DNA of 64,000 nt from a virus. The stretch lies in the IMG/VR virus record IMGVR_UViG_3300050343_000163; one strand, 5' to 3'. Below, piece after piece: positions 17,777 through 38,149 of this stretch; the first letter of the stretch is position 1, and every line of letters starts with the position of its first letter. Under the pieces are notes generated by a model. It was not told the origin of the DNA, did no database searches, and was given only the letters and a program-made list of their open reading frames with translations. The position numbers were made by a program, and so were the translations under genes.

Positions 17777-18336
17777 TTAAAATTCTTAGGTAGTGCCATT
17801 GCAATCTCTGCCATAAGAGCACGACAATCACGATCATTTAATGCTCTGGGAATACCCTTTCTGAATGTATCAAAGTCACCAGCATGTGCTGCACGTCTCA
17901 TCTTAGTTCCAGAAATGGCAAAGGTATCGCCATCAGCGTCTCTACTTCCAGAAGATTGGATATCAATTTTACGGAATGAGAAATCTTTACCATTATATTT
18001 ATGGAGGAACTGCATAGCAGCAACTCTGTCAGAACCTACAAGGAATATAACTTCATTGTATCCTGCAAGCATAATGTCCTGTAAAATTTTAACTGGATCT
18101 CTAGGACCACTATAAATTTTACCTTTATGTTCAGGAAACATCTTATCCATATAAAACTTTTTACGATCTGGTGGCAATGGATTGCTACCTTTTGTATCTA
18201 CAGTTTGTGAAATGTAGATACGATAATCATGTAACCCTGCAGCTGCTTTTACGCCAGCAAAGTTATCTTTGTGTCCTGTAGTAGGTGGTTGAAACCTACC
18301 AAATGTAAAATAGCACTTGTTACAATTTAACGCCAT
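17773..18336 (-). CDS. Cytidyltransferase-like / NMNAT-like nucleotidyltransferase
   Basis: FGRFQPPTTGH (HIGH-type), VGSDR and ISGTKMR motifs. Confidence 0.85.
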   Translation of the reverse strand: MALNCNKCYFTFGRFQPPTTGHKDNFAGVKAAAGLHDYRIYISQTVDTKGSNPLPPDRKKFYMDKMFPEHKGKIYSGPRDPVKILQDIMLAGYNEVIFLVGSDRVAAMQFLHKYNGKDFSFRKIDIQSSGSRDADGDTFAISGTKMRRAAHAGDFDTFRKGIPRALNDRDCRALMAEIAMALPKNFK

Positions 18337-19520
18337 TGCTTCTGAAGAGTAAAGTTGTTGTATGCAAACTCCATACGGTTAACAAACTTAATCATACTGC
18401 CATCCTTATGCAGAACATATCCTTCAGGAGTTGTGACCTTATATCCTTTCTCTGTCTGGACAAAAGTCCTGAACTCTTCTAGGTGGTCAAGTTTATCTAT
18501 AACCATTTGCTTCACTGCTTGCAATTCTTTGTACAGTGTTAGCATTGCTTTGAACTTGTCATTATTTTTCTCAACATATAATTGACTGCCATATACAAGT
18601 TCTCTTTTCTTAGTCAGGTTTGCAACTGTTTTGATCTTGGCAAGTTCTTTACTTGTTTTCTCTTCATAGAAATTGAGCATGGAATACATTGTTTCATCAA
18701 TGTTTCCAATAGAACGAGCATTCTTAATTTCATTATTGAAGAACTGTTTTAAGTATGATGCAATATGAAACTTAGCATCTCCAGTAGTTCCTGTTTTAGT
18801 AACCAACTCATCTAAAAAATCTCCACATGTACTACACATGCGTTCAATAGTGGAGATATAACGATCAAACTTACCCATCTCTGCACGAGAAAAACCAACT
18901 CTATGCATTGGTGTATCATTTTGAATTACTAAAGCTTCAGTAGATCCTTTTACTTTTGCACCAGCTCTTGCTTGCATGTCAGCAACTACGTCTCCAGTAT
19001 AATGAGTATGAAATACTACACCAACTTTTGCAGTGCCTGCTGCCTTACCAATAGGATGATCTACTGGAATACCATAAGTAATAGTATTTGGTCTGAATGT
19101 ATACAAATCTTCTCCATTAATTCGTTCCCTTCTAATATCAGAAGTAAATAAAAGATCACCTTGTACCACACCTTCAATACCTAAAGTAGAAAAATAACGA
19201 AGAGAGAATTTTAATTTTTCTGCTAGGTCACCATCATACCACCCATCAATCTGTTCTTCACTATAGCAAAGTTTAGGAGCAGTCTTTGCAAATACAGATT
19301 TGGTGCCAACAAAAAACATTCCTGTCTGAGGATCTGTGCCACAAATAACTGAAGGAGCACCGTCCCATTTTGTTTGCATAAAACCACCACTCTCTTGATG
19401 ACCCAACATTTTCTTAAGTTCTTTTAAAAAAGACACAGCAGCTTTACAACCCTCAACTCCATAGTTGAGCATTTCATCTTCTAGATGTTCTAAATGTTTT
19501 AGCTGTTTAATGTTTGACAT
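18327..19520 (-). CDS. Conserved hypothetical protein (DUF6267-like) with ligase-type nucleotidyltransferase motifs
   Basis: TKWDG (motif I), VQGDLLF (III), GVVFH (IIIa), PEGYVL (IV), IKFVNR (V). Confidence 0.6.
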   Translation of the reverse strand: MSNIKQLKHLEHLEDEMLNYGVEGCKAAVSFLKELKKMLGHQESGGFMQTKWDGAPSVICGTDPQTGMFFVGTKSVFAKTAPKLCYSEEQIDGWYDGDLAEKLKFSLRYFSTLGIEGVVQGDLLFTSDIRRERINGEDLYTFRPNTITYGIPVDHPIGKAAGTAKVGVVFHTHYTGDVVADMQARAGAKVKGSTEALVIQNDTPMHRVGFSRAEMGKFDRYISTIERMCSTCGDFLDELVTKTGTTGDAKFHIASYLKQFFNNEIKNARSIGNIDETMYSMLNFYEEKTSKELAKIKTVANLTKKRELVYGSQLYVEKNNDKFKAMLTLYKELQAVKQMVIDKLDHLEEFRTFVQTEKGYKVTTPEGYVLHKDGSMIKFVNRMEFAYNNFTLQKQWR

Positions 19521-20761
19521 TACTTCTTATAATAATCTCCATTGGTATGTGTAGGATAAACTCCACCTTGTTTGTTTCTAATATTAAATTTGAAATTATA
19601 TGATTTAGTTTCAAATAACATATCAATACGTTTACCTTTACCAGTAGCACCACCATAATTAATCTCAACTGTATTGCTAACAAGAGAAGCAGCTTTGTTC
19701 ATGTAGTCTCGATCGATCTCATAAAATTCTAAATGAGATCCTGTATAATGCGCCATCCAATATCCATAACCAACTCCACTCTTAATCATATCCTGTAATG
19801 CTGTCTTACCAGAAGTTGATAGTTTAGTATCATCAACATGATTTTCTACTGTAGGACCACTTTTAGTTCCGTAGTTAGCAAATACATCTAAAAATTTTTG
19901 TTGATCTATACCAAACATTTCTAGAAATTCTTGACCATCATCAGGCACTTCACCTAGTTTTAATTTTGCTTCTGGAAATAAAGCTAGATTATCTTTACCA
20001 CTACTACGTACACCACAGTTAAAGAAAGATAATGTGCTTCCAAACTTTACTGAGATGTATACTGGTTTGTTAGCAACTGTCAGTGTAATATCTGTGATAG
20101 TCTTTCCAATATCATTTGTAGTTGAACCACCAGCAGAGATAACAATATTACTTCCTTTCTTTTTAAGAGGACGTTTCTGATTCTTTTCACCCTCGCCTTT
20201 TGCGAAGGTAGGTCCTTCTCCAAATTTTTTGACCATGGCATCAATAATCATATTGACATGATCTGGATATTTTTTAGGTTTTTTACCAGAACAATAATCA
20301 ATTAAGGATTGAGTAAGATCATCTTCATAAACATTACCCATATTAATTTTTTTACCACCTTTGATTTGTCCACCAAACTCACTAGTTTTTGTAAAGTCTT
20401 CTAAGTCTAAGTAAATATCAACACTACTTACAGCACGAGACACATTTTTTCCAGCAGGAAAATTGCATGTAAATTCAATATTGTTTTTACCACGAAGACC
20501 TTCTCTACACACAGCATCAAAAAGCATCTTTGCAGAATTTTCTTTACCAGCATTTCCTTTGATACTATGAAAATCTTGAAAGGGTGAAGTTACATACTTA
20601 CCTGCATTTTTACGAGTGACTGTAAATCCTGCTACCTCAACAATACCAATGTCTGTTGAGAAAAGATTTTCTTTTCCATTACGTCTTAAAGCTTTATCAA
20701 ATAAGGTATCCATACGATCAAGATACCTTCCACCATTTCTGAAAAAATCTCCTGCTTTCAT
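19520..20761 (-). CDS. Putative PD-(D/E)xK-fold nuclease
   Basis: GNVYEDDL helix followed by TITDITL...YISVKFG (D...SxK variant). AT-rich. Own late promoter and RBS hairpin. Confidence 0.5.
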   Translation of the reverse strand: MKAGDFFRNGGRYLDRMDTLFDKALRRNGKENLFSTDIGIVEVAGFTVTRKNAGKYVTSPFQDFHSIKGNAGKENSAKMLFDAVCREGLRGKNNIEFTCNFPAGKNVSRAVSSVDIYLDLEDFTKTSEFGGQIKGGKKINMGNVYEDDLTQSLIDYCSGKKPKKYPDHVNMIIDAMVKKFGEGPTFAKGEGEKNQKRPLKKKGSNIVISAGGSTTNDIGKTITDITLTVANKPVYISVKFGSTLSFFNCGVRSSGKDNLALFPEAKLKLGEVPDDGQEFLEMFGIDQQKFLDVFANYGTKSGPTVENHVDDTKLSTSGKTALQDMIKSGVGYGYWMAHYTGSHLEFYEIDRDYMNKAASLVSNTVEINYGGATGKGKRIDMLFETKSYNFKFNIRNKQGGVYPTHTNGDYYKK

Positions 20762-20980: not shown

Positions 20981-21384
20981 TATCTATCGTCAACAGCACG
21001 AACTTCTGAGTTGTGAACATTGAACTCACCACCAGGATAACGCTTCTTCAGTTTGTTGACGTTGGTTTCAATTACCTCATCGAAGGATATATCAAGTGCC
21101 ATTGTAGCTTGAGCAACGTACCACATAACATCACCCAACTCAATGATAAGATGCTCACGATTATCTTCGTTCCACGGTTTTCCTTGGAAGACCATCTTCT
21201 TAATGATCTCAAGGAACTCACCACCCTCAGCATTAATTCCAACCCCAGCAGTAAGAAGTCTCTCAATATTGGCACCTTGTCGATCAAGATCACCAATACG
21301 ATCAGCAAAGTCAACAAAGTTTGTAGAAGCGTCTGAAGTAACTGCTGAAACAAATTCTTCATAGCGTTCAAATTTAATAGTCAT
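20980..21384 (-). CDS. mazG: MazG-like nucleoside triphosphate pyrophosphohydrolase
   Basis: GINAEGGEFLEIIKK...ELGDVMWY...NKLKKRYP. Confidence 0.9.
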   Translation of the reverse strand: MTIKFERYEEFVSAVTSDASTNFVDFADRIGDLDRQGANIERLLTAGVGINAEGGEFLEIIKKMVFQGKPWNEDNREHLIIELGDVMWYVAQATMALDISFDEVIETNVNKLKKRYPGGEFNVHNSEVRAVDDR

Positions 21385-22766
21385 ACGTTCCACTCGGCAA
21401 ATTTAGATAGTCTAGATTGTGTGTCAGCAAATTGCTGGAAGTCCTCACCAGGAGCTTCTTCATTGATACCAATAGCTGAGGCATCATCAGCAACATCATA
21501 CAGCCTCATCTTCGATCTGTCAATTCCCACCATGAATTTTCGTGAGGTAACGATGTCTGAGTATCTGTTTTTAAGTTGTTTGACCATGATGCGACCTTGT
21601 TGTTCCAACTCCTCAGTAGAGATAAGGGCAAACATAAAATCAGCAGTGGCAGGAAGACCAAAAGACTCAGAAGTATCGGTAAGATCTGGATCGCTATTGC
21701 CAAAACCAGAACGAGTGGTCTGAGTAGCACTAACAATAGGGACGTTATGTTCCACAGCAAGACCCCGAAGCTCCTCAGCAATCGCCTTAACATAGGTATA
21801 CGAGTTAACAACGGCACCTTTGTACCTCACGCTTGCACATATATTTAAATAATCAATGAATATAAGATCTGGTTTAAAATCTTTTTTTAATCTGAGATCG
21901 CTTAGAAGTCCTTTAAAATGTCCCACATGTGCAGAAGCTGTTGGATACTCCTTGATAATAAGTTTGCCCTGAGTTTTCCTAGCGATCTCATTAACCTTAC
22001 TGGTAAAAAGAACCTCAGGTAATTCTGTAATATCTTTTACAGCAACGTTTAAAAGATTTGCGTCAATTCGTTCAGCAATCTTTTCCTCTGCCATCTCACA
22101 TGTAATGTAGAGAACGTTGTACCCCTGTGAGAGAGCGGCACCAGCTGCATGGCACATGAATAGAGACTTCCCGACACCTGTACCAGCAAGAGCGACATTG
22201 AGAGTCTTGTTAGAGATACCACCTTTCGTGATAAAGTTAAACTTTTCAAGATCAAAGGGAACCTTCTCTTCTTTGCGATGGTAGAATTCATATCTGTCTG
22301 TTGCTTGTTCAATATAATCATGTCCTATGTGTTCGTCGAACGATACCGCCAAGGCTTCTTGGAGTATGGAGGGTATCGCATCTCTCGAAAGTTTTTTATC
22401 GCCTCCATCTGCGATCTTGATCGAGGACATAAGGGCGAGATAGATTGCTCTGTCTTGACACCATTTTTCTGTTGCATCGAGGAGCCACTCTTGGTCAACC
22501 CATTCGTCTGATAAGGAGGATACTGTCTGTACCGAACTTTGAAACGATTCGTCAGTAAGGTCATTACGATTTTGTAAGTTAATCGTAAGAATTTCTTTAG
22601 TAGGAACTTTGTCGTACTTAGAAGAAAACTCGGCAATCTCCTCAAAGATAATCTTCTCATGATAATTCTCGTAGTATTCTGCTTTGAGAAATGGGACTAC
22701 CTTTCGATAATACTCCTCGTTATGTAGGAGGTTTCTGAGGATAGTTTCTTCAATCCGTTCAATCAT
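21381..22766 (-). CDS. g41: Replicative DNA helicase (gp41)
   Basis: AGTGVGKS Walker A, IFIDYLNIC, SESFGLPATAD, QLKNRY. Confidence 0.97.
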   Translation of the reverse strand: MIERIEETILRNLLHNEEYYRKVVPFLKAEYYENYHEKIIFEEIAEFSSKYDKVPTKEILTINLQNRNDLTDESFQSSVQTVSSLSDEWVDQEWLLDATEKWCQDRAIYLALMSSIKIADGGDKKLSRDAIPSILQEALAVSFDEHIGHDYIEQATDRYEFYHRKEEKVPFDLEKFNFITKGGISNKTLNVALAGTGVGKSLFMCHAAGAALSQGYNVLYITCEMAEEKIAERIDANLLNVAVKDITELPEVLFTSKVNEIARKTQGKLIIKEYPTASAHVGHFKGLLSDLRLKKDFKPDLIFIDYLNICASVRYKGAVVNSYTYVKAIAEELRGLAVEHNVPIVSATQTTRSGFGNSDPDLTDTSESFGLPATADFMFALISTEELEQQGRIMVKQLKNRYSDIVTSRKFMVGIDRSKMRLYDVADDASAIGINEEAPGEDFQQFADTQSRLSKFAEWNV

Positions 22767-23616
22767 TAAAATTTAACCTAGCAAAGGATTTTTCACTTAA
22801 CCTTGTTTGAATTAGTTTACCATAGTCTTCATGTAATTCGCAACCCAAATAATGTCTTTGTAATGATTTGGCAACCAAGGCAGTAGTACCAGATCCCATA
22901 AATGGATCTAATACAAGATCACCTTCTTCACTACCAGCTTTGATACATGGTTCAATTAACTCTGGTGGATACACAGCAAAGTGTGCTCCCTTGTATGGTT
23001 TAGTTTTAATTTCCCATACAGTTTTCTTACGCTTCAACCCCTTACCATCCACAGTTGATTCTTTGATAGCATTAACATCAAAATAATAATTTTGACTTTT
23101 ACTAAACAAGAAAATATACTCGTGAGATTTAGTGCATCTATCTCTCACACTCTCTGGCATTGGATTAGGTTTATTCCAAATAATATCTTGTCTTAGATAC
23201 CATCCGTCTGCTCTCATAGCAAAAGCAAACATCCAAGGAATACCAATAAGATCTTTTTCTTTAAGACCTTCTAGTTTGTTACCTCGTCTGGCACATGTGC
23301 TAGGTAAATCTTGGTTAGTTTTAGATACTGATTGTTTATGAATAGCTTGACCTTTACCTGGTCTATAGTTGTAATAACTATCACCAAGATTAACCCAGCA
23401 TGTTCCATCATCAGTAAGACAATTTCTTACCTCACGAAAAACCTTTACAAGATTGTCAACATATTCTTCTGGTGTTTGTTCCAGACCAATCTGATCTTCT
23501 TCACCACCATAGTTACGTAGACCATAGTAAGGTGGTGAGGTAACACACATCCTAGCTTTACTATCAAACTCTTTAAGAGTTTCACGACAGTCACCGTAGA
23601 GAATAGTATCCTTCAA
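22759..23616 (-). CDS. DNA methyltransferase, N4-C/N6-A, beta class
   Basis: VTSPPY (motif IV) N-terminal to LDPFMGSGTT (motif I). SPPY is typical of m4C enzymes. Confidence 0.92.
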   Translation of the reverse strand: MKDTILYGDCRETLKEFDSKARMCVTSPPYYGLRNYGGEEDQIGLEQTPEEYVDNLVKVFREVRNCLTDDGTCWVNLGDSYYNYRPGKGQAIHKQSVSKTNQDLPSTCARRGNKLEGLKEKDLIGIPWMFAFAMRADGWYLRQDIIWNKPNPMPESVRDRCTKSHEYIFLFSKSQNYYFDVNAIKESTVDGKGLKRKKTVWEIKTKPYKGAHFAVYPPELIEPCIKAGSEEGDLVLDPFMGSGTTALVAKSLQRHYLGCELHEDYGKLIQTRLSEKSFARLNFND

Positions 23617-24302
23617 TTGATGCTCTCCTTAACAAATAGTTCTTCCATTTTACCATGATTCATACGGAATGCAGTACCACGATTACGAAGAGATTTGCCA
23701 ATCATCTTCTGTGTACGCATACGAATATCAATAGCAATCATATTATTCTCGATTGCAGTGCGAAACAAGTTCTTGTCAGTACCAATGAAACGGTATGCTT
23801 CATTGTAATGGAAGTATTCTACACCGTCACGTTTCTCAACGTCAGCAAATACTTTCACACATGCAGGAAACTTCTTAGCAAACTGATTAATCAATGTGTC
23901 CCAATCCCACATAACAATAATAACATTGCCATGACAGATAGCACAGTAGTCATCAGTGGTCACGATCTGAAGACCACGCTTATTAACAGTTTTAGTTACA
24001 GTAGATTGTCCACTCAACTCACCAATCTTTGTGGTGTGAGGGAAACCATATGTTTCAATATAATCTCTCTGGGGTACAACCCAATCACCCTCTTTAGCGA
24101 ACAGTGTTTGCTTACCACCAGCACCTTTACGTGCTGTCTTTAACTCATTGCCATCAATATCTGGTCCTGCAATGTTATTCTCTTCCAGTCCCAATTCTTG
24201 CTCGAAGGTGTGACCCACACCAGTGTTACCTGTACGGTGGGTTTTAATGTAACCACGTTCTTTGATCGCATTAAATTTTTGCTTGAACGTTATGAGATCC
24301 AT
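23613..24302 (-). CDS. MvaI/BcnI-family restriction endonuclease-like protein
   Basis: RTGNTGVGHTFEQELGLEENNIAGPDIDGNELKTARK...QTLFAKE matches the MvaI/BcnI PD-ExK signature. C-terminal RNRGTAFR. GAGG SD 7 nt before ATG 24302. Confidence 0.8.
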   Translation of the reverse strand: MDLITFKQKFNAIKERGYIKTHRTGNTGVGHTFEQELGLEENNIAGPDIDGNELKTARKGAGGKQTLFAKEGDWVVPQRDYIETYGFPHTTKIGELSGQSTVTKTVNKRGLQIVTTDDYCAICHGNVIIVMWDWDTLINQFAKKFPACVKVFADVEKRDGVEYFHYNEAYRFIGTDKNLFRTAIENNMIAIDIRMRTQKMIGKSLRNRGTAFRMNHGKMEELFVKESIN

Positions 24303-24331
24303 GGGTAATCCTCGATGGTTGATAGACATAC

Positions 24332-24385
24332 TATACAATGAAAAAGGGGGTCTTGCAACCCCATGTAGACAGCTTGTCAATTGCC
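24332..24385 (-). promoter_or_regulatory. uvsX terminator with embedded sigma70-type promoter and upstream dyad motif
   Basis: GGGGT-TGCAAG-ACCCC-CTTTTT hairpin. -35 TTGCAA (24355-24360), 17 nt spacer, TG-extended -10 TATAGT (24332-24337). Dyad GGCAATT-GACA-AGCTGTC at 24365-24385. Confidence 0.7.
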
Positions 24386-25390
24386 ATAGGTGAATTCTTG
24401 TTTAGCTGCTTCTTCTAGTTTTGCCATCACTTCTTCAGTGAAATACTTCTCAGGACTTGAGAGAATAGATTTAGGATAAACAGAAGATTCACCAACCTTA
24501 ATACGATTACCAACCCGCTGGAAGACCCCGTATTGTTCACCCAACTCCAATAACCCGTAATATTTGTCCAGTCCACGGTCGTCAAAAAATAGACGTGTCT
24601 CAATCTTACTACCCTCCTTAGTTAAACGTGATTTCTTTGCTTCACACTTGATGATGTTACCTACCAATTCAGTACCATCTTTCTCTTTCTTTTTACCAAG
24701 ATAGATGATAGTAGATGCAGCATACTTAAGACCTGTACCACCACCCATTTCTTTCATCGGAACATAGGAACCGATAACATCATATGTATGGTTGGTAACA
24801 ATCATAGGAACTTGTGCTTGACCCAGTTTAAGTGTAAGCACACGAAAGGCACCCTTGATCAACTGACTCTTAGTCATGTCCCTGACCTGCTTATCGTTAG
24901 CAACGTCTTCCATCTCCTTGTTAGTTGAAAGCATACCAAGAGAATCTAACACAAACATCATAGGTTCACGTTTGTCTTTAGGTTCTTTCATATACTTGTC
25001 AACGATACGACAAGCTTGAGTCCTGAACTCTTCAATAGTTGAGACAGGAAACAAAACCATGCGTTGAGAATCAATACCACGCGACTCAATCATGTCACGG
25101 GAAATGGCGGATTCAGTTTCAAAATAAATGACGCCACCTGTAGGATTATCGCGGAGGAAATTACGAACGACACTAAGAGCAAAAAAAGTTTTTCCAGTGC
25201 TTGATTCTCCTGCAAGAGCGGTGACTTTGTTTGAAGGAAGACCTCCATACAACGAACCACTAACCAAGGCGTTAAAGATATAACTGCCAGTATCAACGTA
25301 ATCAGTAATGTCGCCAGCAGCGACTCCTTCACTAACCAAACCAGCAAATTCATTGCCACTATCTTTAATTACAGAATTTAAGAATCCCAT
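24377..25390 (-). CDS. uvsX: RecA-like recombinase UvsX
   Basis: [35 protein letters not shown]. Confidence 0.97.
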
Positions 25391-25554
25391 TGTGTTGCTT
25401 CGTCCTCGTAAAAGTTTACATAATTATAATTTTTGCTCATTAGTCTAGCAAAACCAAGAGCAGTTTTGTAGTCCTCAAAGCACTTAATGTCCTCGGGTCC
25501 TACTTGACCGACAAGATGGTTAGTCCATGTGACTACAAAGACTTTCTTATTCAT
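25378..25554 (-). CDS. Small hypothetical protein (58 aa)
   Basis: [29 protein letters not shown]...; ATGA-coupled to the g43 stop; read by eye. Confidence 0.65.
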
Positions 25555-28040
25555 TCAAAGAAACTCCCAATGCTGATAGTCTTTTGATGCTGCCATCCAA
25601 TGCATTGTAGCACATTCTTCAGAGGTTCCAAGAAACTCTTTTCAAATTGTGTTTGGTAATCCACATACTTCTCAATACCAAACTCTTTTGGTAATTCACC
25701 AAAGAAGCTAATTACATTCTCATGTAATGGGTTTGGTGTTTTGAGATACATGAACTTAACCTTCTCACCTTCCTGTATCAAGGCATGTTTATTTTCTACC
25801 TTATGCTTTTTCACATAATGATTATACAGGAGAGCACCCCTCACATGGATTGGGGTTCCTTTGGAATAGATCTCCGTAGGGTGACGGTACTTGGCAAGGT
25901 TGTTAACTCCTCTGGGAAAGGCAACTTCTTCGTAGGGACGTTCCCTCGTTTCTGTTCGCACAACATTGATGAAAGTGATAAGTTCATCATTTGTGTTGCC
26001 GATAATAATCTTAAACGCTGCATATAACTTGTCTCTAAAATACGCTGGTGTCGATGACCTAGCGGTTTCAAGACCCATGATTTTCATCTTGGGTTCTTTA
26101 TATCTAACACCCTCACTGTCCCATACGTTAAGAATGTAACGCTTCTTTGCAGTCCAGATACCACGATCAGCGATGTTCTCACGCTTCATACTCATCTTTT
26201 GTTCATACGCCGATACATACGACGCAAGTTCTTGATATGAACGTTCGATAAAAGGTTCCAGTTTCTCTTCACAGATCTTGTCAAGTAAACCAACAACTGC
26301 TGCTTTATCACCAGACTTATGACCAAGAAATTTATTAACAAGAGGTCCGAGATTAAGATAGATTGAGTCAGTGTCGGATGCAATGACATAATCCTCCTTT
26401 TCAGTGGAGAGCAGTTTATTTAGGTATTCATTCATGCGGTTTTCAATCCAACGAATTGATACCTGACCTGAAAGAGTAATAGCTTCTGCATTAGCAAGAC
26501 GATAATACCTGAAGTGTTCGTTGCCGATAGCACCATAAGCAGAGTTCAAAGAGATCTTCTTTGCCATCTGAATATTATTACAACGGGCGATCTCTTTCAT
26601 GAGTTCAACAGTAGGAGTCTTCTCGTACTGTTGCTTTGCTTTGATCATCCGCTTCTTGAAGATGACACGAGAGTCATACATCTTCTTCATCATCTGAGGA
26701 AGAAACCCATGCTTCTCTTTTGTGTACTGTGCGCCATTAGCACACACAGCATACTCGCCGTCAATGTTTATCTCCTTACGAAGTATTCTATCAACCGTAG
26801 CTTCTGGATGTCGTTTGTCCTTGAGAGTTTCGGGAGAAATGTTGTACTGCATAATGAGGTGAGGATACAAAGAGTTGAGATCAAAAGACACAACCCAATC
26901 ATAGAATCCAGGCTTCGGTTCTTTGACATATGCCCCCGCATACTTTTCAGATTTATCGTTTTGTGTCTTAGGAGGGATAGCAATCTTACGCCTAAGAAGT
27001 TCACAGTAAATGTAGTTGTCCCACATACGAACCTGTGAGAATACATCCTCATAGTTTACCTTAGCATCATATGCCATGGTGTATGCAAGTTCAATCAACT
27101 TCATCTTGTCATCTAGTTGATCTACCAGACGAACGTCATGGATGTTGTAATCAATAAATTTTTGCCAGTCCTTCTCATAGAACTCTTTGAATGTATCAAA
27201 CTCAGAGTGATCTAGTTTCTTAGATCCAAGTTCAACAAAAGCAATATGATCTAGACGATACGATTCTTGGTTAGTATAAGTAAACTTCTTATACAACTCA
27301 AGATAGTCTAGAGTAGAAATTCCAAGAGTGTCAACTGCTAATTGTTTTCTACCTTTAATATAAATCTCACGCTGAGAAACAAGTTTCCAAGGAGACAATA
27401 GCTTCACAAACTTATCACCAAGAATACGTTCAATACGATTACATATGTAAGGCATATCAAACAACTGCACGTTCCATCCAGTAATTACATCTGGAAAATT
27501 CTCCTGCCAGTATTCAAGGAATGCACCCAACATACCTTCCTCTGATCGGAAATGCAAGTAGTCCACCATGGGGTCTTTGTTATTGTATGGACGTGCCCCA
27601 AACACAATAATTCGACCAGTGAAACTATCCTTGATGGATATAGCAAGGATTTCTTGATCGGCAGTTTCAATATTAGGAAATCCGTTTTCAGCAGCGGTTT
27701 CAATATCGATGGTAAATACACGGATCTTTGTGCTGTCAAACTTAAGTTCCTCTTCAGGATGCTGCTCAGCTATGTATTGATATAAAAATCTAGAGTTACC
27801 ATATATTTTAAATTCCTCTACCTCCTTATACTGTTTTATAAAATCTCTCGCTTCAGTGATAGAACCAAACTTATGTGGTTCCACACAATCTCCTTCTAGT
27901 GTACGCCACTCTGAATAATTTTTACTAGGCAAATACAGCGTAGGGTTGAAAGGAACCCTCACGCTGTAACGATTGCCATTCTCATAACCACGCACAAGCA
28001 GACGATTACCTGCTTGCTCAACACTAGTGTAAAAATTCAT
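25551..28040 (-). CDS. g43: DNA polymerase family B (gp43)
   Basis: DIET exonuclease I, SFDLNSLYPH, KISLNSAYG, ASDTDS. No intein. Confidence 0.98.
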   Translation of the reverse strand: MNFYTSVEQAGNRLLVRGYENGNRYSVRVPFNPTLYLPSKNYSEWRTLEGDCVEPHKFGSITEARDFIKQYKEVEEFKIYGNSRFLYQYIAEQHPEEELKFDSTKIRVFTIDIETAAENGFPNIETADQEILAISIKDSFTGRIIVFGARPYNNKDPMVDYLHFRSEEGMLGAFLEYWQENFPDVITGWNVQLFDMPYICNRIERILGDKFVKLLSPWKLVSQREIYIKGRKQLAVDTLGISTLDYLELYKKFTYTNQESYRLDHIAFVELGSKKLDHSEFDTFKEFYEKDWQKFIDYNIHDVRLVDQLDDKMKLIELAYTMAYDAKVNYEDVFSQVRMWDNYIYCELLRRKIAIPPKTQNDKSEKYAGAYVKEPKPGFYDWVVSFDLNSLYPHLIMQYNISPETLKDKRHPEATVDRILRKEINIDGEYAVCANGAQYTKEKHGFLPQMMKKMYDSRVIFKKRMIKAKQQYEKTPTVELMKEIARCNNIQMAKKISLNSAYGAIGNEHFRYYRLANAEAITLSGQVSIRWIENRMNEYLNKLLSTEKEDYVIASDTDSIYLNLGPLVNKFLGHKSGDKAAVVGLLDKICEEKLEPFIERSYQELASYVSAYEQKMSMKRENIADRGIWTAKKRYILNVWDSEGVRYKEPKMKIMGLETARSSTPAYFRDKLYAAFKIIIGNTNDELITFINVVRTETRERPYEEVAFPRGVNNLAKYRHPTEIYSKGTPIHVRGALLYNHYVKKHKVENKHALIQEGEKVKFMYLKTPNPLHENVISFFGELPKEFGIEKYVDYQTQFEKSFLEPLKNVLQCIGWQHQKTISIGSFFE

Positions 28041-30602: not shown

Positions 30603-30746
30603 TCATTTAAATGTTGCAGTGACGCCCACTACAGTACAACCAGGATTACGAGCAAGAGCGACCTTGCGAGCATCTTGATAATCAACAGCGATCACCTCTT
30701 CCTTGAAGACGGTGCCTGCTTTGTATAGGGTGACTTCACACTTCAT
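30603..30746 (-). CDS. Small hypothetical protein (47 aa)
   Basis: MKCEVTLYKAGTVFKEEVIAVDYQDARKVALARNPG...; read by eye. Confidence 0.65.
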   Translation of the reverse strand: MKCEVTLYKAGTVFKEEVIAVDYQDARKVALARNPGCTVVGVTATFK

Positions 30747-31575
30747 AATTAAAAAGGACTAGTTCCTTACGAGCTGCTTGATCTGTATTATAACTCCCCA
30801 CGCTCCTCATGGTGTAAGTGTGTGCAAATTCAGCAGCTGTCCACTCATCGAAACGATCTCTGATAAGTTGTGATGAATTATAAGACACAAGTTGTGGACC
30901 AATAAATCGATCACACTTGACAGCAAAATGATCATGGTTAAAACCACTATGCATATTACCTTTCTTACCATAGAGATTAGAACCAATCTCATAAGGAGGA
31001 TCTAGATAAGTGAAAGCATTCTTATCATCAGTAAGAAGTTGTTCGTAACTGAGGTTAGTGATCTCCCACTTAGAAATCATTCCTGAATATTCAGGGAGTT
31101 TATCAATGCCTCGCATCGAGAAATTGCTATCTGACGCTTGCTTGCTGAAGGAACTGGATTCAGTGAGACCAGAGAAAGAGCACTTATTAACAATATAAAA
31201 ACACACAGCAGCAGATAGGTTGGATGTTGAATCATCGTTTAGTTTCTCCTTAGCTTCTAGAAATAATAGTTTTGCTGATACTGGTTCTGGGTGACGATTC
31301 TTGAGTTGGACTAACTGGTCACGAAGTTCTTGTCCTTGATCTTGAAGCACTCGCCAAAAGTTATAGAGTGGTCCATACAAATCGTTTACCCAGATGTTTA
31401 GGTGTGGATACCTTTTGCCAATTTCTAATGCTACAGATCCACCACCAACAAATGGTTCACGATACTCAGTGTAATCTTTCAGGTTAGGAATGTACTGAAA
31501 GAGTTTACTCAGGGCACGACTCTTCCCGCCTGGATACCTGAGGGGTGTCTTCAATGACTTCAATGTCTGGGGCAT
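30736..31575 (-). CDS. dam: DNA adenine methyltransferase (Dam, D12 class)
   Basis: LRYPGGKS, EPFVGGGSV, YLDPPY. Confidence 0.92.
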   Translation of the reverse strand: MPQTLKSLKTPLRYPGGKSRALSKLFQYIPNLKDYTEYREPFVGGGSVALEIGKRYPHLNIWVNDLYGPLYNFWRVLQDQGQELRDQLVQLKNRHPEPVSAKLLFLEAKEKLNDDSTSNLSAAVCFYIVNKCSFSGLTESSSFSKQASDSNFSMRGIDKLPEYSGMISKWEITNLSYEQLLTDDKNAFTYLDPPYEIGSNLYGKKGNMHSGFNHDHFAVKCDRFIGPQLVSYNSSQLIRDRFDEWTAAEFAHTYTMRSVGSYNTDQAARKELVLFNYEV

Positions 31576-35920: not shown

Positions 35921-35979
35921 AGTATAGGGTATGGAGGGGTCACTGACGACCCCATGTGTACCAGTTTGTCAACTGACAT
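35921..35979 (-). promoter_or_regulatory. Promoter with GGGGTC/GACCCC hairpin and upstream dyad motif
   Basis: -10 TATACT (35921-35926). Hairpin 35936-35953 with a TCGTCA -35 candidate at 17 nt spacing. Dyad GTCAGTT-GACA-AACTGGTAC at 35956-35979. Confidence 0.6.
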
Positions 35980-38149
35980 ACTCTACGAAAGAATTGAGTA
36001 GTTTTTTGTTGGTGGACTTACTAGCAAGCATCTTTTTAAATGCACGAGAGATCTCATTTTTCTTAGCACCAGACTCAACGTTCAACTCTGTATTTTGATT
36101 TAGAGAATTACTACTAATAGCATACAGAGCAGAGAATGCTGCAGGATTAGGAATGATTGCCGATTTTTCTTTCTTCCACTGCTTTTGGATTTCAGTGTAT
36201 TTTGCAAAATCAGCATAGCGTCCAACGAAACTAGACAACTGACTGCCCTGTAGAATACGGAAACCAATTACATTTACATCAGGGTTACGATCACGAACCT
36301 GCTGGATGAAGATGTTAGTGATAGTGTCATATTCAAACTCAGGATAGACACGACCAGTCTGACGATCACGAAGGCAATTGCCCCAGTCAATACGAGAAGG
36401 ACGGATGATGTTCTCATCTTTATGTTCAAGATACTGCTCTCTACCATAAGCAGATTGACATCCTTCACCGTCAGTCAAGATACAAACATTAACTTTCTGA
36501 AGATCATTTTGTTTTTTGAATTCAGGAATAATGTAGTTAAGCAAAACAATAGCTTCGTTCAAAGGAGTTCCTGAAAGAGTAACACCAATTGTATTTTGGT
36601 AACCATTATAATTTGCATAATAGTTTGCTTCTCTATACAAGTTCTTACACATACGCTCATAGTTGCGAGAGTTAGAACGAGAAGAAATAAAGTTCATCAA
36701 ATGAAAACATTGAGGATCAATAAAAAACTCATTCTTTTTTAATCCTTCCCAACTACGATAGTAAGAATCATAACTAACATGCTCTGGAGTTTCGCCTGCT
36801 ATATTTGCTATGGCACGTTTTGCTGCAATCCACTCATTAGTAAATGCATAGACTTCAAATGGAATCTGTACTTTCTTACAGAATGCAGTGAGGTTAAGAA
36901 GTTGTTTGACAGTTGGCAATAGCTCATGCTGCATAGAACCAGACCAGTCAAGAATGAAGATCAGTCCATGGTTCTTACCATCAGGAACAACAGTTACTTT
37001 TTTGAAAATGTCTTCGTTATAAAGATAAGTATGTAACTTTGAAGTATCAAGCACACCAGTCTTAGATTGACCAGCACGAGCATAAGCGTCAGCAGACTTA
37101 CGACATTCAAATTCCTTAACAAGATAGTTTACCTCTTTCTGTGACTGCTTGCGAAAATCTTGATACTGACTATCAACCTGAGAGTAAACATCATCGATAT
37201 CAGATGCTTGACTATCAATCCAATCATGAAGGACAGTCCAATCTACAAGGTGGTTTTCTAGATCAACGTTTTTAGGGATCTCAATATATGTAGTGCTACG
37301 ACCATAATTACGAGAGGAAAGATTTTCTGCTTTCTCATTGAAAGAACGTTGAGTTGAAGAAGTATCTCCTCCTCCAGAACCATCATCCTCTTCATCTTCA
37401 TCCTCTTCATCTTCAAAAGAATCTGCATTAGATGTAGATCCTGCACCACCAAAGTTAGGTTGGATATCAGGTTGATCTTTATCTGAAGATTCTCCAGATG
37501 CTTCCTCAGCAGATTCTACTCCTTCTGCATTTTCATCTTCTTCAGTTTCTTCCTCATCAGATTGTTCAGGAGAAGCTTGAGGAATATTAGCAACCGTTTC
37601 TTCAAACTGCTTACTGAACTCATGTACGTCAACCGCAATCTGTAGAACTTCTTCAAAAGTTTCTGCGAGATCAGTACGAGCAACAAATAATTTTTCTTCA
37701 GTAGAGAAAGGAATAAGTGCATTAGCACCAATCTTAAAGTGTAGATTGATACGGTCAATCAAACTGAGTTTAGTAAGATCTTCTCCCTGAATATTAAAGA
37801 AGTCACGATCGTTTAATTCTTTGTAACCACCAGCAAAAGACTTACGAAGACCTGGATACTTACGCTTCATTAGTTTCTCGATACGAGCGTCTTCAATTAC
37901 ATTGACAAAATCCATAGGACAGTCAGCAATGTCTCTCCAGTCTTTGTTAGGAGTGAATAGTGCATGACCCACTTCGTGACCGACAAGCATATCATATACA
38001 ATGTCTGATGCTTTGTCCCAGTTAGGGAGAGTCAAAATACGACGGTCAACGTCGAAGGAAGCTGTGTAGCACTGCTTATGCTCTACAACAAGATTCTCTG
38101 TAGCGAGAAGACGGGCAAGGTTACCTTTGATTTCTTTGTTGTTTGACAT
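35969..38149 (-). CDS. Metallopeptidase-like / vWA domain protein (MoxR partner)
   Basis: N-terminal GHEVGH (HExxH), acidic linker, MIDAS DWSGS, SGTPL and ILTDGE. Confidence 0.85.
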   Translation of the reverse strand: MSNNKEIKGNLARLLATENLVVEHKQCYTASFDVDRRILTLPNWDKASDIVYDMLVGHEVGHALFTPNKDWRDIADCPMDFVNVIEDARIEKLMKRKYPGLRKSFAGGYKELNDRDFFNIQGEDLTKLSLIDRINLHFKIGANALIPFSTEEKLFVARTDLAETFEEVLQIAVDVHEFSKQFEETVANIPQASPEQSDEEETEEDENAEGVESAEEASGESSDKDQPDIQPNFGGAGSTSNADSFEDEEDEDEEDDGSGGGDTSSTQRSFNEKAENLSSRNYGRSTTYIEIPKNVDLENHLVDWTVLHDWIDSQASDIDDVYSQVDSQYQDFRKQSQKEVNYLVKEFECRKSADAYARAGQSKTGVLDTSKLHTYLYNEDIFKKVTVVPDGKNHGLIFILDWSGSMQHELLPTVKQLLNLTAFCKKVQIPFEVYAFTNEWIAAKRAIANIAGETPEHVSYDSYYRSWEGLKKNEFFIDPQCFHLMNFISSRSNSRNYERMCKNLYREANYYANYNGYQNTIGVTLSGTPLNEAIVLLNYIIPEFKKQNDLQKVNVCILTDGEGCQSAYGREQYLEHKDENIIRPSRIDWGNCLRDRQTGRVYPEFEYDTITNIFIQQVRDRNPDVNVIGFRILQGSQLSSFVGRYADFAKYTEIQKQWKKEKSAIIPNPAAFSALYAISSNSLNQNTELNVESGAKKNEISRAFKKMLASKSTNKKLLNSFVEYVS

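Follow-up and report, generated by a model that had tools for sequence, protein, structure and literature searches.

The gene pair between uvsX and g41 in this virus raises the question of whether a lytic cyanophage carries a complete restriction-modification system, and against which DNA such a system would act. Marine myoviruses encode many N4-methylcytosine (m4C) methyltransferases under strong selection; meta-epigenomics found restriction systems to match them in few hosts and left their role open (PMC8919816). The m4C mark at CCWGG/CCNGG has been reported as characteristic of myovirus-like viral MAGs from the sea, or even as unique to them (PMC8919816, PMC9516812). The window, that is, the whole stretch of 64,000 nucleotides analysed here, belongs to a lytic T4-like myovirus of Synechococcus, placed in the Kyanoviridae near Sedonavirus. 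As argued below, its cassette is best read, with a probability of about 0.6, as an MvaI-like type IIP restriction-modification module that is both functional and mobile and whose role would be to cut unmethylated DNA of co-infecting phages or of the host.

All genes of the region lie on the minus strand, in the order uvsX, leader, nuclease, methyltransferase and g41 (Table 1). The window UvsX is 90% identical to that of S-MbCM7, the closest isolate. In both S-MbCM7 and S-RSM4, uvsX runs straight into g41 with an overlap, which makes the cassette a clean insertion of approximately 1.6 kb. The original prediction of an MvaI/BcnI nuclease and methylase pair interrupting two normally neighbouring core genes was borne out. 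Alignment of the junctions placed the left end of the insertion at the uvsX stop codon, and the pentamer ATTGA is common to both junctions. At the right end, the ATG of g41 overlaps the stop codon of the methylase gene (ATGATTGA); g41 therefore takes its start codon from the last bases of the insert.

Table 1. Features of the uvsX-g41 region and related elements in the window
Feature	Coordinates	Strand	Evidence or remark
uvsX (RecA-like recombinase), core gene upstream of cassette	24377..25390	-	Pfam RecA, E 2e-12
Leader, 74 nt, arrived with cassette	24303..24376	-	Absent from S-MbCM7
MvaI/BcnI-family type IIP restriction endonuclease, 229 aa	23613..24302	-	PF15515 (MvaI_BcnI), E 3.8e-38
Beta-class SPPY DNA methyltransferase, 285 aa	22759..23616	-	PF01555 (N6_N4_Mtase), E 9.4e-57
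g41 (DnaB-like primase-helicase), core gene downstream of cassette	21381..22766	-	Pfam DnaB_C, E 5e-18
CCWGG site, the sole one within the cassette	23357..23361		
Sibling of cassette leader	35925..35985 (about)	-	TTGACAA-CTG-ACATGGGGT, loop, GACCCC, then TATACT

The match of the nuclease ORF to PF15515 spans the full length, with residues 8-223 aligned to profile positions 2-227, and its score of 132 bits is far above the curated threshold of 25. Its sequence matches in the PDB were MvaI (E 4e-17) and BcnI (3e-6). The catalytic residues Glu36, Asp50, Glu55 and Lys57 of MvaI correspond to E34, D48, E53 and K55, which are invariant in a 36-sequence alignment and in all phage copies. An AF2 model (pLDDT 91) was compared with known structures by Foldseek: the top match was the MvaI-DNA complex (2oaa; E 1e-17, TM 0.72), BcnI (2odi) gave a TM of 0.68, and the match to MutH was weaker (TM about 0.42). 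The modelled fold is the two-lobed MvaI/BcnI/MutH-like fold. The Ka/Ks of the nuclease (0.09-0.19) ruled out its being a pseudogene. A longer ORF starting from a TTG at 24380 was also considered, which is probably not the true start because homologues are 228-231 aa long.

Nucleases of this type have hardly been recorded in phages. No PHROG family was found for the window nuclease, and it matched no nuclease family in NCBIfam. A search of 50,697 phage records returned a homologue in just one, which is itself unannotated, and no annotated cognate nuclease among isolate cyanophages; this agrees with the earlier statement that a characterised cognate restriction partner is not known in these phages. 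Our literature search likewise found no cyanophage described as having an MvaI-like nuclease or both halves of a type II system. A scan of genome contigs gave only two marine 'MAG' contigs, which seem to be misbinned phage DNA, and no cellular donor was found.

The methyltransferase ORF matched PF01555 with 193 bits. Its motif IV (TSPPYY) lies in the N-terminal part, near residue 26, and motif I (DPFMGSGTT) in the C-terminal part, near residue 237; because motif IV precedes motif I, the enzyme belongs to the beta class, as predicted. SPPY is typical of m4C enzymes, and the target base is probably N4-cytosine. PADLOC matched the protein to MTase_II PDLC03387 (E 3e-110), a profile that is unnamed and so gives no specificity. 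The best NCBIfam match was CcrM, far below the cut-off, and the PDB matches were a mix of m6A (CcrM) and m4C enzymes. With a Ka/Ks of 0.05-0.10, the methylase is the more conserved gene of the pair; purifying selection acts on both.

The two genes are joined by a short overlap, which had been described as ATGA and is actually TTGA, a TTG start of the methylase gene over the TGA stop of the nuclease gene, with an AAGGAG Shine-Dalgarno sequence within the nuclease 3' end. The AAGGAGG...TTGA junction is kept in 14 loci, and through it the methylase is translationally coupled to the nuclease. Adjacency and co-inheritance of the two genes are as expected of a type II restriction-modification system. 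The nuclease-first gene order, once taken as a sign of an offensive role, is not diagnostic: the bacterial system Eco29kI has the same order (PMC3113576).

The leader contains a terminator-like hairpin at 24362-24347 (GGGGTTGCAAGACCCC) followed by a T-run, a sigma70-like sequence TTGCAA-N17-TATAGT at 24358-24330, and a GAGGA ribosome-binding site at 24313-24309. The TTGCAA hexamer (-35) forms the loop of the hairpin, and the leader is a putative PeSL-like composite element, after the concept of PMC4122927. The predicted promoter is thus present at the sequence level, but it is no better than chance, since the region held 8 promoter-like matches against 6.0 +/- 2.2 in shuffles. The same dyad had been noted before other phage genes, which is only partly confirmed: there is one clear sibling (Table 1), but no second good match of the exact 16-mer was found. 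Elsewhere, the nuclease gene of L023 is bracketed by 47-nt promoter repeats, and the sister cassettes L054 and L071 lack a separate promoter for the nuclease, whose translation is coupled to that of uvsX.

The pair was found in more than 20 uncultured cyanomyovirus contigs (25 IMG/VR loci), and wherever the sequence reaches past the nuclease, the methylase lies next to it, with the exceptions of L023 and L027. One contig of 127 kb (G003) carries an intact nuclease with no PF01555 methylase, which does not fit simple self-protection. The cassette occupies at least five genomic contexts, including uvsX-g41, positions beside Trp-halogenase/2OG oxygenase genes or a photosystem II reaction-centre gene, and one after a helicase. 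In a synteny survey of 77 uvsX-g41 junctions, 54 were empty, 4 held the pair, 17 held an orphan methylase only, and one each held an HNH-like and an oxygenase-like gene.

Orphan genes annotated as 'dam/cytosine methyltransferase' in P-SSM2, P-SSM4, P-SSM7, S-SSM5, S-SSM4, P-HM2 and MED4-213 encode proteins 65-73% identical to the window methylase, and in metagenomic relatives such genes sit at exactly this position between uvsX and g41, sharing the right-hand junction of the cassette. They differ from it in lacking an adjacent nuclease, in their greater length (312-364 aa) and in forming a separate clade. The methylase tree set the nuclease-linked clade apart from the orphan clade (99/98 support), and the paired methylase of L002 falls inside the orphan clade. 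The window and L054/L071 have methylases that are 94-95% identical and nucleases that share just 54-58% identity, whereas the window and L009 have nucleases 86% identical and methylases just 72% identical. These discordant identities indicate that the nuclease and methylase genes reassort between phages, with neither of them being lost, so the modules appear to be interchangeable and hence of common specificity.

Several observations bear on that specificity, which is likely to be CC(W/N)GG. Of the relatives with a solved structure, MvaI is the nearest, and the viral m4C marks at CCWGG/CCNGG mentioned above are a further hint. Aligned to MvaI, the window nuclease retains most of the base-contact residues (Arg25, Asn28, Thr29, Thr68, Asp207, Arg209 and Arg230). 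However, where MvaI reads the two guanines with an HDH triplet, the window nuclease has RNR, so the recognised site could differ from that of MvaI. The pooled Markov observed/expected ratio (O/E) of CCWGG was 0.56 in 14 cassette contigs, compared with 0.75 in 39 contigs without the insert (one-sided MWU p 0.0016), and 1.0 and 0.84 in two cassette-less isolates. The depletion is moderate and occurs too in the insert-less contigs (0.75), whose genomes may carry the pair elsewhere. CCWGG was the most depleted word against two isolates, but in an 80-locus comparison other words discriminated better and it ranked only fifth against 57 metagenomic loci; because of the latter rank, we treat the depletion as no more than supportive. 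There is no CCWGG site in uvsX and one in g41, at 21448. Counted from the junction, empty alleles carry CCWGG at +390/+410 and at about -836, sites that are missing from cassette alleles. CCSGG and CCGG have zero occurrences in the lineage of the window. Avoidance of CCGG was rejected as evidence for the cassette, being common to the cassette-less S-MbCM7 and S-RSM4. Because CCSGG is absent, a CCSGG methylase would be without substrate, yet the methylase is strongly conserved.

The cutting of unmethylated phage or host DNA has to be weighed against three other explanations. The nuclease could be mainly a host-takeover enzyme that breaks up the chromosome of Synechococcus, which is unmethylated, so as to recycle its nucleotides and shut the host off, as chlorovirus enzymes do, or T4 EndoII/EndoIV on unmodified cytosine DNA, with phage exclusion as a side effect. 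Marine Synechococcus genomes are GC-rich, and such a host genome would hold many CC(N)GG sites. Phage DNA would be protected beforehand, hemimethylation being enough (PMC1874612), and the nuclease could therefore act at once; chloroviruses use packaged restriction enzymes in this way (PMC7253447). However, with 54 of 77 junctions empty and 17 holding the methylase only, host degradation does not require the nuclease, the numerous orphan methylases are left unexplained, and a comparable Marseilleviridae system did not degrade host DNA (PMC7253447). We regard this explanation as unlikely, although it deserves consideration. Somewhat more doubtful is that the cassette is a selfish drive or addiction module of little benefit to the phage, in which the nuclease cuts cassette-less genomes during co-infection and T4-type recombinational repair copies in the cassette with its flanks, a homing-like marker exclusion. 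T4 free-standing homing endonucleases are located between essential, translationally coupled genes, as is this cassette; the slot is a hot spot that in L116 holds the HNH-like gene; the CCWGG sites of empty alleles nearest the junction are gone from cassette alleles; and the R and M modules and their contexts are shuffled. Against this, the recognition site would be short and frequent with no unique homing site, the contexts are unrelated and do not share one cognate site, and the strong purifying selection on both genes fits phage benefit as well as selfishness. The original prediction had allowed for a homing element; the HNH-like gene of the slot and the lost sites give that part some indirect support, but being so strictly linked to a methylase is a mark of restriction-modification. 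A homing endonuclease proper would have a long, rare target at the empty cognate site and need no methylase, which disagrees with this linkage (save L023 and L027), the multiple contexts and the short-site enzyme family.

It is also conceivable that the methylase is armour against host restriction, with the nuclease a non-cognate or decaying passenger, or a CCSGG/CCCGGG enzyme irrelevant to phage DNA. Orphan methylases of the same family are indeed common in isolates, a CCSGG enzyme would be harmless to a lineage without any CCGG, and the change from HDH to RNR falls within the recognition loop. However, the low Ka/Ks and invariant catalytic residues of the nuclease, its strict and conserved translational coupling to the methylase and its co-inheritance with one methylase clade all argue against a passenger; a CCSGG methylase without substrate is difficult to reconcile with the methylase being the more conserved gene; and matching host systems are scarce (PMC8919816). 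We consider this explanation very improbable.

In the favoured reading, a restriction-modification module directed at unmethylated phage or host DNA, the nuclease would be a monomer that cuts the two strands of CC(W or N)GG in succession, and the methylase would place N4-methylcytosine on the inner C. For MvaI, methylation of one strand suffices to block cleavage of both strands (PMC1874612), so phage DNA would be safe both during replication and in the capsid, and the nuclease would not have to be expressed later than the methylase. Within the infected cell, the DNA open to cutting would be whatever is unmethylated, namely the host chromosome and the genomes of co-infecting cyanophages that lack the methylase. 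The orphan methylases of the same family, found in the uvsX-g41 slot and in many isolates, may be antidotes to the nuclease or remnants of the pair, and the cassette may move by recombination at the hot spot, aided by the PeSL-like terminator/promoter element.

An intact pair here and a methylase alone in many relatives suggest that these phages use DNA restriction against each other or the host. The new elements are the pair itself in uncultured cyanomyoviruses and its several genomic contexts, the reassortment of R and M, the orphan methylases in the same slot, and the stronger depletion of CCWGG in cassette-bearing contigs. A probable cognate nuclease lies on the phages themselves, linked to one methylase clade and sharing a slot with the orphan clade; it offers a concrete explanation for the methylases, namely phage-versus-phage exclusion or attack on host DNA, and suggests which enzyme is likely to make the m4C marks at CCWGG/CCNGG that have been seen in viral genomes only. 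The locus would also exemplify how T4-like phages pass around a small toxin-like module by way of a recombination hot spot. More tentatively, and as a possibility we would not yet favour, cyanomyoviruses may wage restriction warfare, in which MvaI-like phage nucleases select for the widespread and otherwise unexplained m4C (CCWGG-type) orphan methyltransferases of Prochlorococcus and Synechococcus myoviruses as antidotes, and the pair spreads by cutting rivals in co-infected cells, being copied in during recombinational repair.

Among known systems, R.MvaI (CC^WGG) and R.BcnI (CC^SGG) share the Pfam family and fold of the window nuclease, and the active site, E-x13-D-x4-E-x-K, is the same in R.MvaI; SPPY is present in the partner methylase, in likeness to M.MvaI (C-m4C-WGG). 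Enzymes of this nuclease family are monomers that cut CC^WGG or CC^SGG to leave a 5' overhang of 1 nt. Unlike these, the window nuclease is about 26% identical to R.MvaI, with a middle third that does not align in sequence, and the MvaI system belongs to the bacterium Kocuria varians (type IIP), whereas here the carrier is a lytic phage and the specificity is predicted. The PeSL cassettes of T4-type phages (PMC2839356, PMC4122927) resemble the leader in combining a G-run/loop/C-run hairpin with a putative sigma70-like promoter before a variable gene, and in recurring in the genome. The leader differs in having just two clear copies within the 64-kb window and its -35 in the hairpin loop, and its role in recombination is putative. 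The free-standing homing endonucleases Seg/Mob of T4 are likewise nuclease genes between conserved core genes, patchy among close relatives, but they are GIY-YIG/HNH enzymes with long targets, whereas here a short-site restriction enzyme is accompanied by its probable cognate methylase. The restriction-modification systems of chloroviruses (e.g., CviAI) and the GATC system of Marseilleviridae are analogues with demonstrated roles (PMC7253447). These, too, are complete virus-encoded type II pairs of adjacent genes, intact in one clade and absent in its sisters; they have been proposed to degrade host DNA or to exclude viruses that co-infect the cell, and orphan methylases have been proposed to be a shield against the nucleases of rivals. 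They differ in belonging to eukaryotic giant viruses and in using m6A and unrelated nuclease families, whereas the present pair is that of a bacteriophage, MvaI-like and predicted to be of the m4C type.

Every gene of this region is encoded on the minus strand, and two of them, a nuclease gene and a methyltransferase gene, separate uvsX from g41. The original prediction of an insertion between two core genes was borne out, as uvsX and g41 overlap directly, by 11 nt, in the cassette-less isolates S-MbCM7 and S-RSM4. The nearest isolates, S-MbCM7 (ACG-2014h, Sedonavirus), ACG-2014j/e/i and S-CAM4, share 83–85% DNA identity in uvsX and g41 and lack the central 1.6 kb. Junction alignment showed an insert of about 1.6 kb with clean edges, the pentamer ATTGA at both, and a g41 start codon that comes from the insert's end. 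Downstream of mazG (window 18327-19520 and 19520-20761, minus strand), a 413-aa ORF without a Pfam match adjoins a DUF6267 protein (E 2e-122).

Gene order around the nuclease-methylase cassette in the window
Feature	Position	Strand	Remark
gp43 DNA polymerase	25551-28040	-	
58-aa ORF	between gp43 and uvsX	-	
uvsX	24377-25390	-	RecA-like by Pfam
Leader, 74 nt	24303-24376	-	
Nuclease ORF, 229 aa	ATG 24302 to stop 23613	-	Pfam MvaI_BcnI PF15515
Methyltransferase ORF, 285 aa	23616-22759	-	Pfam N6_N4_Mtase PF01555
g41	22766-21381	-	DnaB-like by Pfam
mazG	after g41	-	

The profile search matched the nuclease to PF15515 over the whole profile (E 3.8e-38), in agreement with the predicted MvaI/BcnI signature, and its closest solved relatives by sequence were MvaI (E 4e-17) and BcnI (E 3e-6). 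Residues E34, D48, E53 and K55 align to the MvaI active site, Glu36, Asp50, Glu55 and Lys57 (PMC1874612), and are invariant in a 36-sequence alignment (identity down to 30%) and across all phage copies. The window nuclease keeps Arg25, Asn28, Thr29, Thr68, Asp207, Arg209 and Arg230, which contact DNA in MvaI (PMC1874612). MvaI reads two guanines with His223-Asp224-His225, whereas the whole phage clade has Arg-Asn-Arg there. The AlphaFold2 model (pLDDT 91) matched the MvaI-DNA complex best (E 1e-17, TM 0.72), followed by BcnI (TM 0.68), with no further notable structural match. Pairwise Ka/Ks was 0.09–0.19 for the nuclease and 0.05–0.10 for the methylase. Because of the relatedness to MvaI, the conserved catalytic residues, the model fold and the low Ka/Ks, the pair is intact and kept by selection.

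The claimed beta-class SPPY methyltransferase was likewise supported by the profile search (PF01555, E 9.4e-57) and by the motif order, with TSPPYY near the N-terminus and DPFMGSGTT near the C-terminus. ATGA coupling had been claimed as well; the genes do overlap, but the overlap is TTGA (AAT TGA / TTG AAG). This junction and an AAGGAGG-like Shine-Dalgarno sequence just upstream are conserved in 14 related cassettes, and the methylase starts with TTG in 12 of the 14. Two related loci (L016:1317-2186 and L024:2253-3158) have a second, distant N6_N4 methyltransferase (27–29% identity) 1–2 kb upstream of the pair. The window itself encodes a second, Dam-like methyltransferase (30739-31575, minus strand; 78% identity to the S-MbCM7 'DNA adenine methylase'), and GATC is over-represented there (318 observed vs 225 expected from base composition).

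The predicted TTGCAA-N17-TATAGT promoter is present in the leader as a sequence (9/12 matches), but promoter-like matches in the region were no more frequent than in shuffles, and a terminator-like hairpin with a T-run after it has the -35 hexamer as its loop. The same dyad had also been claimed to precede other phage genes. One sibling element upstream of another gene (window ~35925-35985, minus strand) has the layout of the leader, TTGACAA...ACATGGGGT-loop-GACCCC...TATAnT; the exact 16-mer had no other good match. This composite hairpin/promoter element resembles a member of a PeSL-like repeat family (PeSL, promoter-early stem-loop). Similar leaders with a hairpin, T-run and TATAAT precede the nuclease in L017, L018, L021 and L026, and in L023 a copy of a 47-nt direct repeat (91% identity between the copies), containing TTGACA-N17-TATATT, lies on each side of the nuclease gene.

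Among 50,697 phage records, a collection that may leave out records of the window's own genome, a nuclease homologue was detected in one other, the Kyanoviridae single-cell contig MH319755 (56% identity), in which nuclease and then methylase (70% identity) follow a helicase gene. A PHROG family was not found for the nuclease. In a large protein collection, ~90 clusters reached at least 50% identity, each of them metagenomic and on contigs up to 195–199 kb; the nearest named cellular proteins had only 37–38% identity. IMG/VR contained 25 nuclease loci, and the two genes were adjacent and overlapping in every locus reaching past the nuclease, except L023 and L027. The cassette lies at uvsX-g41 in L003-L008 and L022. 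Its neighbours in L009 and L017 are Trp-halogenase and 2OG-Fe(II) oxygenase genes, in L020 it adjoins a photosystem II reaction-centre gene, and further contexts occur. At L023:3898-4732 (contig G003, 126,920 bp), an MvaI-like nuclease with 65% identity and all catalytic residues stands alone between regA and hsp20/gp43, and a PF01555 methylase was not found anywhere in this contig, which has 70% of the genome present. The scan of 185,579 species genomes matched only two marine 'MAG' contigs, L131 (NHGE01000052.1) and L132 (NZVD01000053.1), which are assigned to a Euryarchaeota and a Rhodopirellula MAG and carry the cyanophage nuclease at 82–86% identity. Because one of them matches an IMG/VR viral contig in length (14,985 bp), both are probably misbinned viral contigs.

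We surveyed 80 uvsX loci at 83–99% identity, 77 of which contained both uvsX and g41. The two genes were adjacent in 54 junctions; 17 held only a same-family methylase (61–75% identity, 312–364 aa) and 4 held nuclease and methylase. One junction contained an HNH-like ORF (L116:2156-2641, 161 aa; Pfam HNH 21.3 bits, borderline at the cut-off), a candidate free-standing homing endonuclease, and another a 2OG-Fe(II)-oxygenase-like ORF (L121:3023-3532, 169 aa, weak Pfam matches). The slot is a hot spot. Its orphan methylases begin at the site of the g41 ATG in empty alleles, and the right-hand junction into g41 is common to all occupied alleles. Members of the same methylase family carry the annotation 'dam' or 'cytosine methyltransferase' in P-SSM2, P-SSM4, P-SSM7, S-SSM5, S-SSM4, P-HM2, MED4-213 and others. 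In a maximum-likelihood tree, the nuclease-linked methylases (16 rows, 99/98 support) were apart from the orphan clade, in which MH319755 (L002) was the sole paired methylase.

At the same slot in L054 and L071, the methylases are 94–95% identical to that of the window and the nucleases only 54–58%; these nucleases have 77–79% identity to the MH319755 type, no leader, and TAATG coupling to uvsX. Conversely, L009 and the window share 86% identity in the nuclease and 72% in the methylase. Such swapping of partners without loss of either gene would imply one specificity for the whole family.

CCGG was absent from the window, L028 and L029 (0 observed vs 28–89 expected), GGCC was nearly absent (5), and TGCA, GTAC and AGCT were strongly depleted. 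The same absence, near-absence and 4-bp palindrome depletion occur in S-MbCM7 and S-RSM4; the avoidance is therefore lineage-wide and independent of the cassette, and CCGG/GGCC avoidance was ruled out as cassette evidence. As CCGG is absent, CCSGG does not exist in the window, S-MbCM7 or S-RSM4. CCWGG has 47 copies in the window, with a maximal-order Markov O/E of 0.59; the values were 0.55–0.58 and 0.20 in five further cassette contigs, and 1.0 and 0.84 in two cassette-less isolates. The difference narrowed against broader controls: pooled O/E was 0.56 in 14 cassette contigs vs 0.75 in 39 without an insert at the slot (one-sided MWU p 0.0016), and CCWGG ranked no higher than fifth among discriminating words. 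The cassette contig G004 contains CCGG, and CCSGG was also low there (7 observed vs 15 expected), so CCNGG is possible as the site. Two independent marine meta-epigenomic studies describe m4C at CCWGG/CCNGG either as a typical mark of myovirus-like viral MAGs or as one confined to viral MAGs (PMC8919816; PMC9516812). From the site statistics, these published motifs and the kinship to MvaI together, we predict CC(W/N)GG with m4C at a probability of roughly 60–65%.

In summary, the observation holds. A lytic cyanophage carries a type IIP restriction-modification system of the MvaI family, and the analysis shows an intact MvaI-type nuclease, coupled to a methylase and mobile within cyanomyoviruses. 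In MvaI, a single methylated inner cytosine is enough to stop the enzyme from cutting either strand (PMC1874612). By analogy, inner-cytosine methylation on one strand would block cutting of both here; phage DNA, packaged or replicating semi-conservatively, would stay protected, and unmethylated DNA in the cell would be cut. A control protein or delay would not be required, which is consistent with the two-gene, nuclease-first, TTG-coupled design. This setting is biologically interesting and offers a testable idea on why marine myoviruses methylate their own DNA.

The targets could be rival phages or the host chromosome. An offensive role had been read from the nuclease-first order; the order alone proves nothing, since the bacterial system Eco29kI is described as sharing it (PMC3113576). 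Cassette alleles lack the CCWGG sites that lie nearest the junction when the slot is empty (g41 +390/+410, uvsX about -836), which hints at homing-like behaviour. We favour rival phages, together with selfish spread, because most relatives do without the nuclease, a sister clade keeps the methylase alone in the same slot, and matching host systems appear scarce (PMC8919816). Rival viruses are likewise the target proposed for a Marseilleviridae system, and the less favoured host chromosome could be attacked as described for chlorovirus restriction enzymes (PMC7253447).
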